Assembly (NCBI GenBank): GCA_963833425.1
Contig: CAWHXP010000003.1
Location: 32,001-96,000, forward strand
Direction: 5' to 3'
Source: an uncultured Methanosarcinaceae archaeon
GTDB taxonomy: Archaea; Halobacteriota; Methanosarcinia; Methanosarcinales; Methanosarcinaceae
Length of the DNA: 64,000 bases
Shown here: positions 30,801-36,800 of the stretch, piece after piece
Numbering within the stretch: the stretch's first letter is position 1
How the letters are laid out: the number at the start of each line of letters is the position of its first letter
Position numbers: made by a program

Positions 30801-33800
30801 TGGCCCTCCGGAAGCATATCTGGCACTGGGAGGACATATTTATCTTGCCATATTTGTTGCGATGGGCATTATATTGACAATCTTTGTAATTAGTACGAGT
30901 TATTCGCAAATAGTTGAGTTATTTCCTACAGGCGGTGGTGGATATTTAGTTGCAAGCAAATTGCTATCGCCGTCTCTTGGAATGCTTTCTGGTTGTGCAC
31001 TCCTGATAGATTATGTACTTACAATTTCAATTTCAATAGCAAGCGGTGTAGAAGCCGTACTAAGCTTTCTACCAATAAGTTGGCAAATAACTAAATTGGG
31101 GTTCGCTTTTTTTGTGATCATGGTACTTATCGTATTGAATTTGAGAGGGATAAAGGAATCAGTTATAGTTTTAGTACCAATATTTGCATTATTTGCAATT
31201 ACCCATGTTATATTAATAATATATGCATTTTCTACCCATCTAACGAACGTACCAACAGTGATGAATAATACCGTCACTGATGTCCACGAAGTAACATCTG
31301 GAATAGGGGTTACAGGGTTGCTTTTTATTATTCTGCATTCATATAGCATGGGAGCTGGGACATATACTGGAATTGAGGCCGTAAGTAACGCAGTTCCAGT
31401 AATGAGAGAACCGAAAGTGAAGACGGCAAAGAGAACCATGCGTCTTATGGCGATTTCACTGGCATTCATGGCAGCAGGACTGATGTTTGCTTATGTACTT
31501 TATAATGTCGCCCATGAACCTGGTAAAACTTTGAATGCCACCTTATTTGAGAATGTGACCAAGTCTTGGGGAAGTCTGGGTAACTATTTTGTAATAGCAA
31601 CTCTCCTATCAGAAGCAGGACTATTGTTTGTAGCGGCACAGACTGGATTTATAGATGGTCCACGAGTCCTGGCAAATATGGCTCTAGATAGATGGGTTCC
31701 GACTAAGTTCGCAACGCTGAGTGATAGATTTGTGACTCAAAATGGCATATTGATAATGGGCATTTCAGCGTTAATTATGGTCTTCCTTACCCATGGATCA
31801 GTCGAAAGCTTGGTAGTCCTTTATAGCATTGCGGTTTTCATAACTTTTTTTCTATCTCAAGCAGGAATGGTTCGCCATTGGTGGGAATCTAAAACAGAAG
31901 TCAAAGACTGGAAGAAAAAATTTCTCGTCAATGGTATGGGATTATTAATGACTGTTTTGATATTAATATCAGTGATACTGGTTAAGTTCCACGAAGGTGG
32001 ATGGGTGACATTGCTTATTATCGCAGTTTTTGCTGGAGTTGTTCTTGTTATTAGGCACCATTATGACTATGCTTCAGGACTTATTAAAGAGTTGAATGCC
32101 GCAATCATCAATTATACCGAATTTGCGGATATAATTAAAAATGATGCACCTTATAGAGTTGACATGCAAGATAAAACTGCTGTACTACTTGTAAACGGTT
32201 TTAATGGTTTGGGGATCCATACACTGTATAATATATTCAAATTATTTGGTGGAATATACAAAAATTTTGTATTTGTACAAATTGGAGTAATCGATGCTGG
32301 AGTGTTTAAAGGAGTAGAAGAAATTAAAGGACTTCAGGCTGAGGTAAATAAGGATATAAATAAATATGTCGGATTAATTTCATCATATGGCTATTATGCC
32401 GAAAGTTTTACCTCAATAGGTACTGATGTTGTTGATGAAATTACAAAGCTGGCACCAGAAATCTTAAAGAAGTTTCCTAATTCGGTATTCTTTGGTGGAC
32501 AGATTGTCTTCCCTAATGAATCGTTACTCTCTAGATGGCTCCATAATTATACTGTCTTCTCATCACAGAGAAAACTATATGCTGAAGGCATTCCTTTTGT
32601 AGTTTTGCCAATCAAGGTGTAAAAATGATCTTTGAAGACTGAAATTAAAGTCTTGAGGATCAAAATCAGATACAATAAAAATTTTATTTTCAAATTAGAA
32701 CTTAGACATCAGAAGGTTTAAATGCCATTGATTTCTCGATTTGGCTATATAAGTCCTAAAATTTAGTTGTCATATGGGTGATTTTGTTAAAATAGGAATT
32801 GTTCTATATAAATCAAAAAAATGTACTTGATAATGAAAAAGGGAAAATATTAAATGGATTTCTAAGACTAACATATAAACTATGAAAGCAATAAAAATAT
32901 TATGAAATATTTTCGGTCACGCGAGTTATTTATTTATCAATTCTGAAAAAAAATAATATTATCCAAAAGTATTTTGAGTAAAATACAAAGAGTTTCTGAC
33001 ACTCACTGTCTTTAGTAACTTGTGGACACGACATAAAAGGTAAGATTGGAAAAATAAATATATTTTTGAAGAGAACTTGAAAATAGGGTCACTGAAATTT
33101 TTTTCTGTAACGGTCGTCAGGATGGTTGAGACTTTGAATTCCTTGCCCGCACTGACAACTAGTTCAGCATTGTTACGGAGATATACGACATCAATAGACT
33201 TGGTATCGAAGGCCGCCTGCGACTGATAATCGATCATAATCAACGTATGGTTGGTCGGATTCAAAAGCGTTTTTCTTGGGGTTGGATTTGCTTTGAACAT
33301 AGTTTAGACTTTCTGTTTAGGTAAGATCATATCTCTAGTTTCGTTTATGTTGCCTGAATAATAAAGTCAAAAGGACATAGATACTATTTCGAACTTTGCA
33401 AGTATAATTTTTCTGATGGGCTTTCTCTAAAAGTAAGTCATTTTATGACTTCAAAATGATAAAGAATGTTGTTTTATTATTAATTCTCATTTATATATAT
33501 CTATTATTTTTTTTAAAACTTAGTCAAATGAATTAAATTCCCTTAACTTTTGAAATATGTTTACTCATAGTTCTAGTGAATCGAAAATTATGGGAAGGAT
33601 ACGTTGAGAATATGGATAGATTTTATGCGAAATCTCTGCATCAGTGAAACAATAAACACTGTTTTTGTGGTGGAGACAAAGAACACAGAACTACTTAGAA
33701 TTTACGGTTCCGTTGCAAAAAATTCAAAAAAAAGATGTAACTCTATAAGTAATAAACAAAAATCAAAAATATCCGAGGAAAATGTATCAATATTATAAAA

Positions 33801-36800
33801 CTAAACCAAACAATTGATTAATGTATTTGACTTCATTAAGAACAGAGTATTTTAGATTCTTGATTTGTCCTTTATTGATCATATTCATGGCTTCAATTCC
33901 TTTTAAAGTCTTATTAGCAGATCGAAAAGACTGAAATCCTAACATTGGATTAACGATTCGTTTGATAGATCTATGATCTTGTTCTATAATGTTATTCAAA
34001 TACTTGATTTGCCTAATGCCTACGTTTTTAGGTAATATTTATCTTTTTTCAGTTCATCTATAGAAAGTGGATAAGCTGGATTCTTATCAACGGTTATTAA
34101 TCTTGGAATTTGATTATGATTAGAACTCAATACTTTCTTAAAGAATCTCTTCGCTGCTTTTCGATTTCGTTTTGCACTTAACATGAAATCAATTGTATCT
34201 CCATCTTAATCAACTGCTCGGTAAAAATATTTCCATTTACCTTTTACTCTGATATAGGTTTCATCAACTCTCCACGAATCGTTTGTTGGTCTTAAATGTC
34301 TTCTTACCTTTTTTTCTATTTCAGGAGAATATTAATGCACCCATCTCATTATAGGGTTCTGTTGCAAAAATAATATTTTCACAGAATTCTTGTCTTTTTG
34401 TACTGTTTCCCGGTGATGAGAATGATTAAAATTCTTAATTGTAGAGGTTTTACACTGATTTTGCAACAAATACAGATTTTTTGCACCACAAACAGACCTC
34501 AACCTGTGCTCACTCTGATCTTATGGGCAATCTCACAATGCAGTACTGTGACCTCTGGTCCAATGAATCAGTAGAATACCACGGTGAATTTGGTGGTACA
34601 ACTGTTCAGTGCTGGTCTGAAACCCTGGCATACGACTGCGCTCTCATGAACTTTGCTCTTGACTCAGGTAATGAAAAAATCCTGAGAGACATGTTTGCAG
34701 CTTCGGACATGTATAGAGATGCGCAGGGTTATGTGCTTGCATATCCTAATACATACAGAGTGGGACAGGCAATTGCAAAGGATGGAAACGATACTTATCT
34801 CCGTGCCAAGAATGCGGCTCTGGAAAGCATCAAAATAGTCGAAGAAGGAGCAAAAGGCAAACTTGAGCTCTCCAGGTTCGAAGCAAATGCTCTTAAAGAT
34901 GTAAAAGCAGCTTTCGGAACCCTTACAGACGCAGAGATCAATTCGTGAGCGACTGCCTCACAAAATATAAGAGTGAAGTTGCGATCTTCCTGCCTGAGAA
35001 TTAGTGCTTCTAATCGGGGCTGGTTCTTCTATTATCTTTTTTAAATAGTCTTGGTTAAAGCCCTTGTTACAAAACCTATATCAGTACTTTTTCATTGAAC
35101 TGAAAAAGTAAAAACATTTCAGAGAAAAAAGAAAAAACAGGTTTCACAGTCACTCTTTTCTTACCAGGCGATTCTCTCGTCTTCGCAACTGAGGCTCTTG
35201 ATGCTATCGGATCGCTCAAGTTATTTACCCTACTGTTTACCCTGTTTTTTGCAGCTATTGCAGGAGATACTGCCAAGTATCATGTCGGTCAGTTATTAAG
35301 AAATAATGTAGCGAGCAGCGATAACTCCGGTTTATTTAACAGGAGCATCTTGATCTTACACACATATTCTTTGAAAAACATGAGGCGAAAACAACAATAA
35401 TAACCTTCTTTGTTCCTATTATCCGCAGCTTTGCGCCTTTTGTTGCAGTTGTTGGAATAATGTCCTGTTCAAATTTCATTAGCTATAATGTCATTGGTGG
35501 AATCTAATAGGTATGAGCATTCCTTTTAGAAGGATACTTTTTTCGGAAACCTGCCGAATGTAAAGGATAACTTCAGCTTTAAGATACTTGGAATGATTTT
35601 TGATTCATTACTTCCAGGCTTTATTACGTATATTCAAAGCAGAAATGATTAAAAAAGGACTGCAGTCAAGTAAATACAGCACAAAATCAAATCAGAAATT
35701 AGAATTGACAGCTAGGTATAAATCAGGCTCAAGAATAGTTAGAAAAAATGGGGCATGCTCGTTTTTCAGAATTATCAAAGAACTCACAGATGCGACTGAA
35801 TTTCCTTTTCAGTGTTTTTCTTCCTGCTTGAAAGATTCTCTATTTTTTGCAATATGTGTTCTCTTTATGTTCGCGCTCGTGGTCATTTTCAGGTTTAGGT
35901 ACCTTAATGCCCCTCTTCTCAAAAACTCCCTGTACCGAGCTATTTACTGCTTCTTTAAGGGCTTCTTTCTTAACATTTGAAACTGCTGAGAGGATTTTTA
36001 ATGCAGGAACCGATCCTTACTTTGTTTTAATTATATCTTCTGGGGCTCTTCGTAATATATTGTAACGCTTTGTTTTACGGTTTCTGACCCTATATCTACG
36101 AAAAGGTTAATATGCCTGCAAATTCGGGATTTAATTTTAATACCTTTGCTTTTAAGTGGTCATCAATTAGGTTATTAATTCTCTTGCAGCTACATTGCTC
36201 AGATTTTCATTTTCAACTGCAAATTCTACATAATAGTGTATCAAAATAAAGAAACTATTTTACAGACAGATTTCTAATTATAACCATGTCTCAACAGGAT
36301 ATTCGTAACCTAGCTTACTGGAACAATCGACTAAAAATTGCAGAAAACGAAATGTTACCAGAAAATTTCAAAATTCTCAGAAAGCATATCAAAAGGTTGC
36401 AGGATGAAGAAAGAAAACCAACGATGATAATTAATAATCTGGCTATACTTATACGCTTCTCTAAGTGATTGGAAAAGAAATTTAAGAACTTTATCAAGGA
36501 TGACTTTACCGACTACTTGGACACTACGGTGACCCTGAAAAATTCTTATCAAATAACTTAATCTGGTTGGGAGACGAAGAAGCTTTGAAAAAACTCGGGC
36601 AGGGATGGTATGCAGATGAAACCTTTGCCCTTGTATACTTCTGCATTTTGAGTTATCCAAAAGACTATAAAAAAGCAGTGCAAACATCCGTGTATATCAC
36701 AGGAGATTCTGATTCAGTAGGAAGCATTGCAGAAGGAATTCTTGGAGCAAAGCTGGGTATTGAAGAAGTTCCTGCTTCCTGGACTGAGGCTCTTAAGGAA

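Follow-up and report, generated by a model that had tools for sequence, protein, structure and literature searches.

A fossil mtaB gene in a Methanosarcina lineage that has probably lost methylotrophic methanogenesis

The open reading frame at positions 34494-34948 of the window, the 64,000-nucleotide stretch of DNA analysed here, is very probably a dead fossil. It corresponds to the last third of mtaB and derives from the last methanol island (mtaA-ramA-cobW-mtaB-mtaC) of its lineage. With similarly high confidence, we assign the locus to a Methanosarcina lineage in which methylotrophic methanogenesis has been lost. The clade comprises six species: G000, the genome of the window, G020 and G044; and G021, G045 and G049. 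All coordinates are window positions unless a contig is named. The locus contains the following features:

29348-30200, minus strand: complete IS6-family element, 853 bp, with perfect 16-bp terminal inverted repeats (GGTTCCGTTGCAAAAA)
30628-32622, plus strand: amino-acid permease gene, 664 aa (PF13520 AA_permease_2, E 1.3e-23)
33706-34354, minus strand: decayed IS6 copy cut down to about 648 of 853 bp, with the left terminal repeat (33706-33721) retained
34355-34493: dispersed 139-bp miniature element whose terminal repeats resemble those of IS6 and whose outer end is the exact mtaB breakpoint
34494-34948, plus strand: 3' stump of mtaB (methanol:corrinoid methyltransferase), residues about 289-437 and the stop codon
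34949-36230: conserved flank 3' of mtaB, common to G021, G045 and the outgroup G042
36231-39283: 3,053-bp insertion that G045 and G042 lack
39284-40033, minus strand: remnant of the island's cobW-type GTPase gene
40025-40490: high-copy dispersed repeat, up to 121 copies by repeat depth, with 12-bp terminal inverted repeats

The mtaB stump and its surroundings

The stump lies in a 155-residue reading frame (34481-34948, plus strand) that matches positions 288-436 of 460 of the MtaB profile PF12176 (E 6.9e-64). It aligns with residues 289-434 of the solved MtaB chain 2i2x_A (E 3.6e-69). A six-frame search of the entire assembly returned it as the sole MtaB match (G000:C3:66493-66939), as expected from the first-pass annotation, which had described a 3' stump as the only trace in the genome. 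The stump has no internal stops, and its dN/dS relative to G021 is 0.20 over 150 readable codons. The homology of mtaB from the sisters G021 and G045 begins exactly at 34494, with 92% identity. Compared with MtaB of the MtaBC complex (PDB 2i2x; PF12176), G000 retains the C-terminal third only. The first approximately 288 codons of mtaB are missing from the stump locus together with mtaC, and the G000 genome encodes neither the partners MtaC and MtaA nor the activase RamA. The zinc-binding residues of MtaB should fall within the portion that the stump lacks. Because the N-terminal two-thirds of the enzyme and all its partners are lacking, the stump should do nothing.

The first-pass annotation had placed the stump beside IS6 fragments. 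Transposase fragments are indeed nearby, but the direct left neighbor is the 139-bp element, and the truncated IS6 copy follows only after it. The 139-bp element has 41 BLAST matches in G000, itself included, and its terminal inverted repeat occupies 34357-34370 and 34478-34491. Comparison of one reference copy with 11 others showed similarity that stops at the edges of the unit. The truncated IS6 copy has lost its stump-side end, including the N-terminus of the transposase, and its transposase frame is broken. Two PF13610 fragments on the minus strand cover profile positions 96-139 (33793-33999) and 35-80 (34020-34184), with in-frame stops between and upstream of them. BLAST aligns this copy to 65-77 genomic copies at 76-92% identity; its full-length sister copies measure 853-857 bp, of which only 646-648 bp are alignable with it. 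The complete element at 29348-30200, present in up to 78 copies by BLAST depth, has 100% complementary terminal inverted repeats and encodes an intact 234-residue transposase (29431-30135; PF13610 DDE_Tnp_IS240, E 2.6e-43, profile 4-139 of 139).

IS26-type elements generate adjacent deletions and pseudo-compound transposons. The locus resembles the IS6/IS26 family in the size, terminal repeats and DDE_Tnp_IS240 transposase of its complete element, in the permease gene enclosed as a passenger by two like-oriented IS6 copies, and in the position of the mtaB break, which coincides exactly with the outer edge of an IS6-type terminal repeat. There are two differences: the stump directly adjoins a 139-bp miniature derivative, and the neighboring IS6 copy is itself truncated. 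Judging from the junction, the deletion at mtaB may have arisen through intramolecular transposition or recombination between copies. Neither a donor copy nor a target-site duplication was identified, and no search aimed at the latter was made.

Downstream of the stump, the conserved flank is 92% identical to loci L014 and L015, and 76-78% identical to L018. The alignment then leaps from 36235 to 39284, where L015 and L018 are contiguous, and one metagenome contig joins 36230 to 39284. The intervening insertion carries, according to Pfam, an ADP-ribosylglycohydrolase fragment (36567-36878) and a protein with ACT and metallo-beta-lactamase domains (37402-38985). The cobW remnant (ORF 39564-40127; PF02492 cobW, E 1.8e-16, profile 25-128 of 180) is 92.6% identical to L015 7156-7907, and homology to the sisters' island ends with it. 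The genes ramA and mtaA, next after cobW in G021 and G045, are gone in G000, the whole genome giving no RamA or URO-D match. The dispersed repeat, with inverted repeats at 40022-40033 and 40424-40435, bounds the island remnant on the right.

Gene loss and decay across the clade

The G000 genome gave no matches to the corrinoid protein (PF02607), MttB (PF06253), URO-D (PF01208; MtaA/MtbA), MtmB (PF05369), MtbB (PF09505), RamA (PF14574) or PylD (TIGR03911), and nothing above the cut-off for PylS (TIGR02367). PF00361 matched only a 643-residue Ech-type subunit and no Fpo. Every absence from the first-pass annotation that we retested was thus reproduced. ARAGORN detected no tRNA-Pyl among the 48 tRNAs of G000, with one found at the G014 control locus, and tblastn queries with Fpo, PylSBCD and MttCB of G014 had no match in G000 besides the distant Ech.

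The earlier claim that sister genomes share the loss of pyrrolysine, methylamine genes and Fpo holds for the five sisters, which we matched to those of the first-pass annotation by pattern. The corrinoid protein is missing from G000, G020, G044, G045 and G049 and has a single match in G021, whereas one or more are found in 54 of 58 other Methanosarcina species. We know of no methylotrophic route that does not require a corrinoid protein. MttB is absent from all six clade genomes and present in five of six outgroups; MtmB, MtbB and PylD are each absent from the five clade genomes other than G020. URO-D matches within the clade are limited to G021 (whole) and G045 (with TGA and TAG stops), and those of RamA to the same two genomes. 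PylS is missing from all six genomes and exceeds the cut-off in 51 of the 58 other species; G021 and G044 are the only PylS-less genomes among the 39 that are at least 90% complete. Fpo antiporter-like subunits are missing throughout the clade, save for a stump in G045.

G021 carries an intact methanol island, every gene of the island is broken in G045, and G000 is left with the stump; G020, G044 and G049 have no MtaB or URO-D match. These are the decay stages reported earlier for the last methanol operon, with genomes again paired by pattern. G021 encodes MtaA (344 aa), RamA (541 aa), MtaB (461 aa) and MtaC (260 aa) with both B12 domains. In G045, mtaA contains TGA at codon 36 and TAG at codon 225, ramA a 13-nt insertion and mtaB a 2-nt insertion, while mtaC is reduced to its B12-binding domain. 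An fpo remnant also survives in this genome: fpoO, preceded by a C-terminal half of fpoN that is spread over several frames and shares 67-77% identity with FpoN of G014. The fossils speak against the absence of pyl and the other genes as an ancestral state. The dN/dS values between G021 and G045 are 0.44 for mtaA, 0.68 for ramA and 0.375 for mtaB; those of the island genes relative to G042 are 0.08-0.10. The earlier statement that the lineage has given up methyl-based metabolism agrees with the pattern of loss but does not extend to every member. It is not yet true clade-wide, because G021 keeps intact mtaA, ramA, mtaB and mtaC, and its sequences suggest that methanol use may persist there.

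In the mcrA DNA tree, which covers four clade members since G045 and G049 lack mcrA, G000, G020, G021 and G044 are grouped at 100/100 and nested among Pyl-bearing species (nodes 95/97, 100/100 and 98/99). The echA DNA tree groups all six at 100/100 as sister to G014. Both are single-gene trees, and both place a long stem branch under the clade. Identity between G000 and its sisters amounts to 90-94% for mcrA, echA and the mta flank, instead of the 95-96% given earlier; 96.4-96.7% is the identity between G021 and G045. Among ORFs of at least 250 aa, TAG terminates 131 of 1146 in the clade (11.4%) versus 7 of 224 in five outgroups (3.1%; Fisher p 5e-5). The excess could stem partly from pseudogene-truncated ORFs; among orthologues with conserved C-termini, TAG occurs in only 6 of 73 versus 2 of 73.

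Alternative explanations

It is very improbable that the methyltransferase, pyl and fpo genes exist but were left unassembled or unbinned. The six assemblies are 73-92% complete by marker genes and, being kin, are not independent. An earlier caveat about the incompleteness of G000 and its missing mtr genes was justified: contig C21 starts within the mtr operon, and G000 lacks MtrH because the contig end falls inside it. CdhC was not found in G000 either, G045 and G049 lack mcrA, and two non-clade genomes, 75% and 80% complete, are also without PylS. However, more than ten normally scattered loci are gone in each of the six assemblies, and all 13 non-clade genomes below 85% completeness still show 1-14 corrinoid-protein matches. 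G044 consists of 20 contigs, the longest exceeding 1.16 Mb, and a 624-kb contig has the conserved fpo upstream flank in its interior. The fossils, the raised dN/dS of the methanol island and the shifted use of TAG support real gene loss rather than assembly gaps. We give an equally slight chance to a misassembly of the stump junction at repeats, with a longer or complete mtaB elsewhere in the true G000 genome. The junction lies at the end of the approximately 40-copy 139-bp repeat, adjoining the approximately 70-copy IS6, and two related metagenome contigs match from exactly 34494 and then diverge from the window sequence. G000 also shows signs of assembly errors: hdrE, hdrD and ack have one-base insertions despite strong purifying selection on these genes. 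Therefore, the frameshifts may be assembly errors, and pseudogene counts of G000 are probably inflated to some degree by indel errors. Nevertheless, the 5' part of mtaB, mtaC, mtaA and ramA are found nowhere in the 4.07-Mb assembly. Since the metagenome contigs are 90-99% alike, they may originate from relatives (G021- or G045-like populations). A wrong join would still need a repeat copy inside mtaB near codon 288, so that mtaB is interrupted either way.

A more serious, if still less favored, possibility is that a lifestyle change (small populations, obligate syntrophy or host association) set off general genome erosion and that the losses followed as a by-product, instead of reflecting a specific metabolic specialization. 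ORFs of at least 100 aa cover a fraction of 0.50 in G000, 0.49 in G044 and 0.51 in G021, compared with 0.67-0.75 in five outgroups, and the GC content is 35-36% versus 40-44%. Sequences with three or more other copies make up 14% of G000, which has approximately 70 IS6 copies. Of 95 close orthologues of outgroup ORFs, 20 are broken or partial in G000, broken orthologues occur between clade members in both directions, and the long stem branch points the same way. However, low GC by itself reduces ORF cover, and part of the breaks seen in G000 may reflect errors. Purifying selection remains strong on core methanogenesis, hydrogenase, ack and hdr genes; dN/dS of ack and hdrED is 0.02-0.16 across the clade's species, with 0.29 in one near-identical pair. 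As only the methanol island is relaxed, the loss is selective by pathway. Erosion complements the reading of a lost methylotrophic metabolism and does not exclude it. It is unlikely that the lineage is still methylotrophic, through a G021-type methanol island or unrecognized non-homologous methyltransferases. The intact G021 genes favor this, as do the G021-specific changes in mtaA and mtaB, which are not fully neutral (9 synonymous to 7 non-synonymous). Nonetheless, both a usable gene set and the corrinoid protein are absent in five of the six genomes, and dN/dS is raised even between G021 and G045.

Proposed history and related lineages

The clade retains the large subunits of Vht-, Frh- and Ech-type NiFe hydrogenases, HdrE/HdrD, and genes of H2/CO2 methanogenesis (FTR in 5/5, Mer in 6/6 and FwdA in 6/6 genomes). 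MtrH is present in 4/5, CdhC in 3/5 and intact acetate kinase in 4/5. Methanosarcina barkeri uses hydrogen-cycling electron transport (Ech, Frh, Vht, HdrDE), which does not require Fpo. In these components the gene set of the clade resembles that of M. barkeri; unlike the clade, M. barkeri keeps Fpo and full methylotrophy. We hypothesize that clade members live on H2/CO2, and at least some also on acetate, with M. barkeri-type hydrogen cycling that would make Fpo dispensable. The ancestor of the clade would have lost the pyl, methylamine and fpo genes, after which the methanol island would have drifted under relaxed selection. In the G000 line, events involving IS6-type elements would then have removed mtaC and the first approximately 288 codons of mtaB from one side; a second miniature element bounds the presumed loss of ramA and mtaA on the other.

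The first-pass annotation found no report of such a Methanosarcina, which is too strong. In the sections consulted, Shalvarjian et al. (PNAS 2025, PMC12626013) note that a few Methanosarcina strains lost Pyl and use more TAG stops. This matches the absence of PylS, PylD and tRNA-Pyl and the TAG shift seen here, and their three Pyl-minus assemblies may belong to our clade. Those sections treat the loss as a codon-usage data point and mention neither the loss of methanol methyltransferase, corrinoid protein, RamA and Fpo nor the fossils, retained hydrogenases, IS expansion and low coding density of our clade. Candidatus Methanovorans (ANME-3), as described in the consulted part of PMC12180501, lost methylamine and pyl genes, has degraded relicts and shows a raised share of TAG stops (about 17% versus less than 5%). 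Like our clade, it is nested among methylotrophic Methanosarcinaceae and caught at differing stages of loss. However, ANME-3 are methanotrophs, whereas the clade keeps Frh-, Vht- and Ech-type hydrogenases and CO2-reduction genes without Fpo, and therefore looks like an H2-using methanogen. It contradicts the statement there that all methanogenic Methanosarcinaceae genomes carry pyl genes. Methanimicrococcus and Methanolapillus from arthropod guts underwent genome reduction with a substrate range narrowed by gene loss, according to the portions consulted of PMC11362671 and PMC9723798. They went the opposite way and are obligately methyl-reducing; the clade lost methyl-use genes, kept CO2-reduction genes, and has a repeat-rich genome of near 4 Mb. 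The lineage has very probably lost traits typical of its genus: the metabolism of methyl compounds, pyrrolysine and the respiratory complex Fpo.

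The mtaB remnant and its mobile-element borders

The window carries a 155-amino-acid open frame at 34481-34948 on the forward strand that matches the MtaB family profile (PF12176) over positions 288-436 of 460 (E 6.9e-64) and aligns with residues 289-434 of MtaB in the solved structure 2i2x_A. Two sister species, G021 and G045, have mtaB loci with 92% DNA identity to this region, and the homology begins exactly at 34494. A first block, which includes the stop codon and the downstream flank, extends to 36235; after a gap of ~3 kb, a second block spans 39284-40033. The profile match, the synteny with mtaB and its downstream flank in G021 and G045, and the match to 2i2x_A identify the frame as a member of the MtaB family by descent. 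A working MtaB would match the profile over its full length (~460 positions) and be accompanied by its cognate MtaC, MtaA, and RamA. The frame is restricted to positions 288-436, and the profiles of MtaC (PF02607), MtaA (PF01208), and RamA (PF14574) each have zero matches in the genome of the window (G000). The stump is the sole MtaB match in a six-frame profile search of the 4.07 Mb assembly in 21 contigs. The 3′ fragment of mtaB noticed in the first-pass annotation is confirmed.

The methanol island of G021 contains mtaA and ramA, followed by mtaB and mtaC on the opposite strand, all intact. It follows from this order and content that G000 has lost mtaC and ~288 mtaB codons at one end of the island and ramA and mtaA at the opposite end. 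Each edge of the remnant coincides with the end of a mobile element. The features around the stump are:

29348-30200: intact IS6 copy, 853 bp, in the same orientation as the truncated copy, encoding a 234-amino-acid transposase
Between the two IS6 copies: amino-acid permease gene
33706-34354: truncated IS6 copy, 648 of ~853 bp, with the transposase reduced to two PF13610 fragments at 33793-34184
34355-34493: 139-bp dispersed element with IS6-like terminal repeats, adjoining the left edge of the stump, with ~40 other copies in G000
36231-39283: insertion of 3,053 bp, absent from G045 and from the outgroup Methanosarcina genome G042
36567-36878: C-terminal fragment of an ADP-ribosylglycohydrolase, within the insertion
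37402-38985: 527-amino-acid ACT and metallo-beta-lactamase protein, within the insertion
40025-40490: dispersed repeat, up to 121 copies, with terminal inverted repeats of 12 bp at 40022-40033 and 40424-40435

The intact IS6 copy is an element of ~0.8 kb bounded by perfect 16-bp terminal inverted repeats at 29348-29363 and 30185-30200, and its transposase (29431-30135; PF13610, E 2.6e-43) is of the DDE type of IS240/IS26. The stump had been described as lying beside IS6; a truncated IS6 copy is indeed nearby, but the directly adjoining element is the 139-bp dispersed repeat. BLAST finds 41 matches to this repeat in G000, including itself, and the similarity ends at the unit edge in the copies compared. 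It is probably a miniature derivative mobilized by the IS6 transposase. At the right edge, sister homology stops at 40033; this position falls within a cobW-type GTPase gene, itself truncated, and on the border of the high-copy repeat. No long ORF was recognized within the 40025-40490 repeat, and further repeats with up to 52 copies are located at 42405-42986. An Rfam scan of the window returned one tRNA (5378-5449) and nothing else, and thus no family for the repeats, including the 139-bp element. In the most economical reading, the island would have been truncated through IS6-type elements, by intramolecular transposition or by recombination between copies; from the coincidence of edges, we consider such a deletion mechanism moderately likely.

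Contigs from four public runs (four studies; three labelled peat metagenome) are 90-99% alike to the window and cover most of 33000-41000. They represent relatives or mixed populations and do not bear on single-base indels in G000. At most 20% of the sampled words occur in any public run, uncovered parts are uninformative, and one of the four runs may be the source of the window itself. Two of the metagenome contigs match from exactly 34494, and their upstream sequence differs from that of the window. One contig fuses 36230 directly to 39284, and the 3,053-bp insertion is therefore polymorphic in nature. Depth is 380-1340 over the IS6 segment versus 4-8 over unique parts.

Methyltransferase, pyrrolysine, and Fpo genes in the clade

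The clade of the window genome includes five sister species (G020, G021, G044, G045, and G049). We retested the reported absences by six-frame profile searches. The corrinoid-protein domain B12-binding_2 (PF02607) has no match in G000, G020, G044, G045, and G049, and one in G021; at least one match is present in 54 of 58 other Methanosarcina species, and 1-14 matches in all 13 non-clade genomes that are less than 85% complete. MttB was found in none of the six clade genomes versus five of six outgroups, and MtmB, MtbB, and PylD in none of five clade genomes each. Within the clade, URO-D is limited to G021 (whole) and G045 (two stops), and RamA to the same two genomes. Each clade genome has one Proton_antipo_M (PF00361) match, of the Ech type, and G045 has three small fragments in addition; the three adjacent antiporter-like subunits FpoL, FpoM, and FpoN that would mark Fpo do not occur in the clade.

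PylS scores above the cut-off in 51 of the 58 other species; the seven exceptions comprise the five sisters and two fragmentary non-clade genomes (75% and 80% complete), and in these two corrinoid proteins are present. Among 39 genomes at least 90% complete, PylS is missing only in G021 and G044. Against a PylS cut-off of 178 bits, the clade genomes reach at best 19-32 bits, and none of the six has a match at E 1e-25 or better. Searches of G000 by tblastn with Fpo, PylSBCD, and MttCB proteins of the outgroup G014 returned nothing but distant matches to the ech operon (24-37% identity for the Fpo queries), with no match to PylB, PylC, or PylD. None of the 48 tRNAs that ARAGORN predicts in G000 is a tRNA-Pyl (anticodon CUA); in a control, the program detected tRNA-Pyl in the pyl locus of G014.

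These searches reproduce the first-pass result that G000 is devoid of corrinoid protein, MttB, MtmB, MtbB, MtaA/MtbA, RamA, PylS, PylD, and Fpo, with PF00361 limited to the Ech antiporter. The loss proposed to be shared by the five sisters is upheld as well: MttB and PylS are absent from all six genomes, and Fpo-type antiporter-like sequence survives only as the decayed fragments in G045.

Lineage-level loss weighed against missing data

Some absences in these assemblies are technical or ambiguous. MtrH is missing from G000 for technical reasons, because the mtr operon is cut by the start of contig C21. Neither G000 nor G049 gave a CdhC match, and a DNA search did not find mcrA in G045 and G049, which were therefore placed by echA. 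The echA DNA tree joins all six clade genomes (100/100) as sister to G014, with the subclades G000+G020+G044 and G021+G045+G049. The mcrA DNA tree unites G000, G020, G021, and G044 (100/100) and, with other genera as outgroups, nests the clade inside the genus under nodes of 95/97, 100/100, and 98/99, among species that carry PylS, MttB, and Fpo. On this single-gene evidence, the clade belongs to Methanosarcina, and it is monophyletic and derived. The two DNA trees replaced a McrA protein tree that grouped G020 with another genome, G046, on a long branch; we rejected this grouping as an artefact of choosing the longest open frame, since the C-terminal parts were garbled in both.

Gene fossils are present in both subclades. 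The methanol operon is whole in G021, damaged in every gene in G045, and a stump in G000, in agreement with the staged decay proposed earlier. In G045, mtaA is interrupted by two stops (TGA, codon 36; TAG, codon 225), ramA has a 13-nt insertion and mtaB a 2-nt insertion, and mtaC is cut to the B12-binding domain. Because remnants occur in both subclades, the common ancestor still had the island, which then decayed in several independent events. Of fpoN, G045 retains the C-terminal half, split over several frames and 67-77% identical to G014 FpoN, and fpoO follows it. In G000, the conserved fpo-upstream flank is internal to a contig of 624 kb and has no fpo next to it. No fossil of pyl or methylamine genes was found in any clade member.

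The dN/dS ratios between G021 and G045 are 0.44 for mtaA, 0.68 for ramA, and 0.375 for mtaB, versus 0.08-0.10 for the island in comparison with the outgroup G042. Within the clade, the ratios for ack, hdrE, and hdrD are 0.02-0.16 between species; a single near-identical pair gives 0.29. Selection is thus relaxed specifically on the methanol island. In clade DNA, 131 of 1146 long ORFs end in TAG versus 7 of 224 in five outgroups (Fisher p 5e-5), a rise of ~3.5-fold that may be inflated by pseudogene-truncated ORFs; among orthologues with conserved C-termini the counts are 6/73 versus 2/73. Two papers put TAG stops at less than 5% in pyrrolysine users and ~13-18% in relatives without pyrrolysine (PMC12626013, PMC12180501).

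The trees, the fossils, the fpo flank, the dN/dS ratios, and the TAG stops support the proposal that the lineage gave up methyl-based metabolism. With several independent lines of evidence, it is very likely that the loss is real at the level of the lineage and does not reflect missing data.

The hdrED locus of G000 (C6:88872-90912) has 1-nt insertions, two in hdrE and one in hdrD, and ack (C2:57049-58217) has two 1-nt insertions and TGA at codon 50. Outside the shifted stretch, the G000 HdrE and HdrD proteins are 97-99% identical to those of G044, and dN/dS of G000 ack is 0.07. Because of this high conservation and the low dN/dS, the lesions are probably assembly errors, or else very recent events; if those in hdrED were real, the loss of the essential HdrDE would be a puzzle. 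Frameshifts in G000 are therefore not to be over-read, and we do not claim that it lost acetate use on the basis of the ack lesions and the missing CdhC, as ack dN/dS is low and the essential hdrE and hdrD are similarly hit. The stump is unaffected by indel errors, because it rests on 0.9 kb of missing mtaB sequence and three missing genes.

Another Methanosarcina species, G023 (81% complete, 450 contigs), is near the clade but outside it on the mcrA and echA trees. Its PylS has a TAA stop, its MtaB is spread over two frames, and a split URO-D adjoins pylS; it has no MttB, one corrinoid-protein match, and no antiporter subunit other than the Ech type. G023 could be a poor assembly, or another lineage that is following the same path. 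The close outgroup G042 (77% complete) has full methylotrophy and PylS and no FpoL/M/N-type matches; its antiporter-like subunits are Ech-type plus two Mrp-like only. If the absence of Fpo from G042 is real, the loss of Fpo may predate that of methylotrophy.

Retained metabolic genes, genome erosion, and implications

G000, G021, G044, and G049 each have three NiFe hydrogenase large subunits: one Vht-like of 596 aa, one Frh-like of 465-491 aa, and that of Ech, 364-384 aa. The Vht match is missing in G045, and the Frh-type subunit is present in all five genomes tested. FwdA and Mer are present in 6/6 clade genomes, FTR in 5/5, HdrE in 5/6, MtrH in 4/5 (cut at a contig end in G000), CdhC in 3/5, and intact acetate kinase in 4/5; mcrA is present in G000, G020, G021, and G044, and HdrD lies beside HdrE in all four loci aligned. 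Of the two cdh flanks in G000, one is internal to contig C11 and the other is near the end of C4, with rearrangement. In G020, the mcrA region (C134) lacks 35 nt relative to the other genomes over 1710 nt and has a longest frame of 526 aa, and the fwdA match (C203) contains TAA; these differences may be assembly faults or core-gene decay. The retained set points to an H2/CO2 methanogen, with acetate use in at least some members, and would imply hydrogen cycling of the barkeri type, a scheme that does not need Fpo.

The fraction of sequence covered by ORFs of 100 aa or more is 0.50 in G000, 0.49 in 140 kb of G044, and 0.51 in 100 kb of G021, versus 0.67-0.75 in five outgroups; these figures are rough, as lower GC alone reduces ORF cover and IS copies are counted in. 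GC content is 35-36% in the clade versus 40-44% in outgroups. G000 contains ~70 IS6 copies, and 14% of it has at least three other copies. Of 95 outgroup ORFs with a close G000 homologue, 14 are broken and 6 partial, and broken orthologues occur between clade members in both directions, including the 120-contig G021. In the 64 kb of the window, only 31 ORFs reach 150 aa and long stretches have no long ORFs, which fits the low genome-wide coding cover. Another mobile element is located just downstream of mcrA on C13 of G000 (positions 2730-3399 of the extracted locus L002); a first look gives 198 candidate copies of this repeat in G000 and 105-158 in the five sisters, versus 11-65 in the other 53 species.

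Reductive evolution driven by IS elements is of a kind known from recently host-restricted bacteria. The relatives in peat metagenomes, the GC drop of 6-8 points, the long-ORF cover of ~50%, the hundreds of mobile-element copies, and the many pseudogenes lead us to speculate, tentatively, that this is a free-living Methanosarcina clade in such a process, already turned from the generalist, methylotrophic, pyrrolysine-using life of the genus into an H2-dependent specialist back on the standard 20-amino-acid code. If true, the clade would let the loss of a genetic-code expansion and of a respiratory complex be followed in nature, while it is under way, in a methanogen with cytochromes.

As a genus, Methanosarcina is the textbook example of a generalist methanogen and the model for pyrrolysine. 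A full-text literature search found no description of a joint loss that takes in methanol methyltransferases, every corrinoid protein, RamA, and Fpo, nor of the fossils, retained hydrogenases, and genome erosion of the clade; for non-methylotrophic, Fpo-less, or eroded Methanosarcina, it gave no reports other than PMC12626013 and PMC12180501. The former states that a few Methanosarcina strains lost pyrrolysine and use more TAG. The latter, a 2025 comparative paper, asserts pyl genes in all methanogenic Methanosarcinaceae genomes and describes in ANME-3 the same kind of staged loss as in the clade. The earlier statement that there was no prior report is too strong for pyrrolysine loss, which is already in print and tempers the novelty.

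The clade shed methylamine and methanol use, pyrrolysine, and Fpo, and kept its hydrogenases. Environmental 'Methanosarcina' reads, for example from peat, are therefore not a safe proxy for methylotrophic methane production. The clade offers staged natural intermediates for studying how genetic-code expansion is abandoned, gives comparative support for hydrogen cycling replacing Fpo, and may exemplify genome erosion driven by IS elements, which would be rare among archaea.
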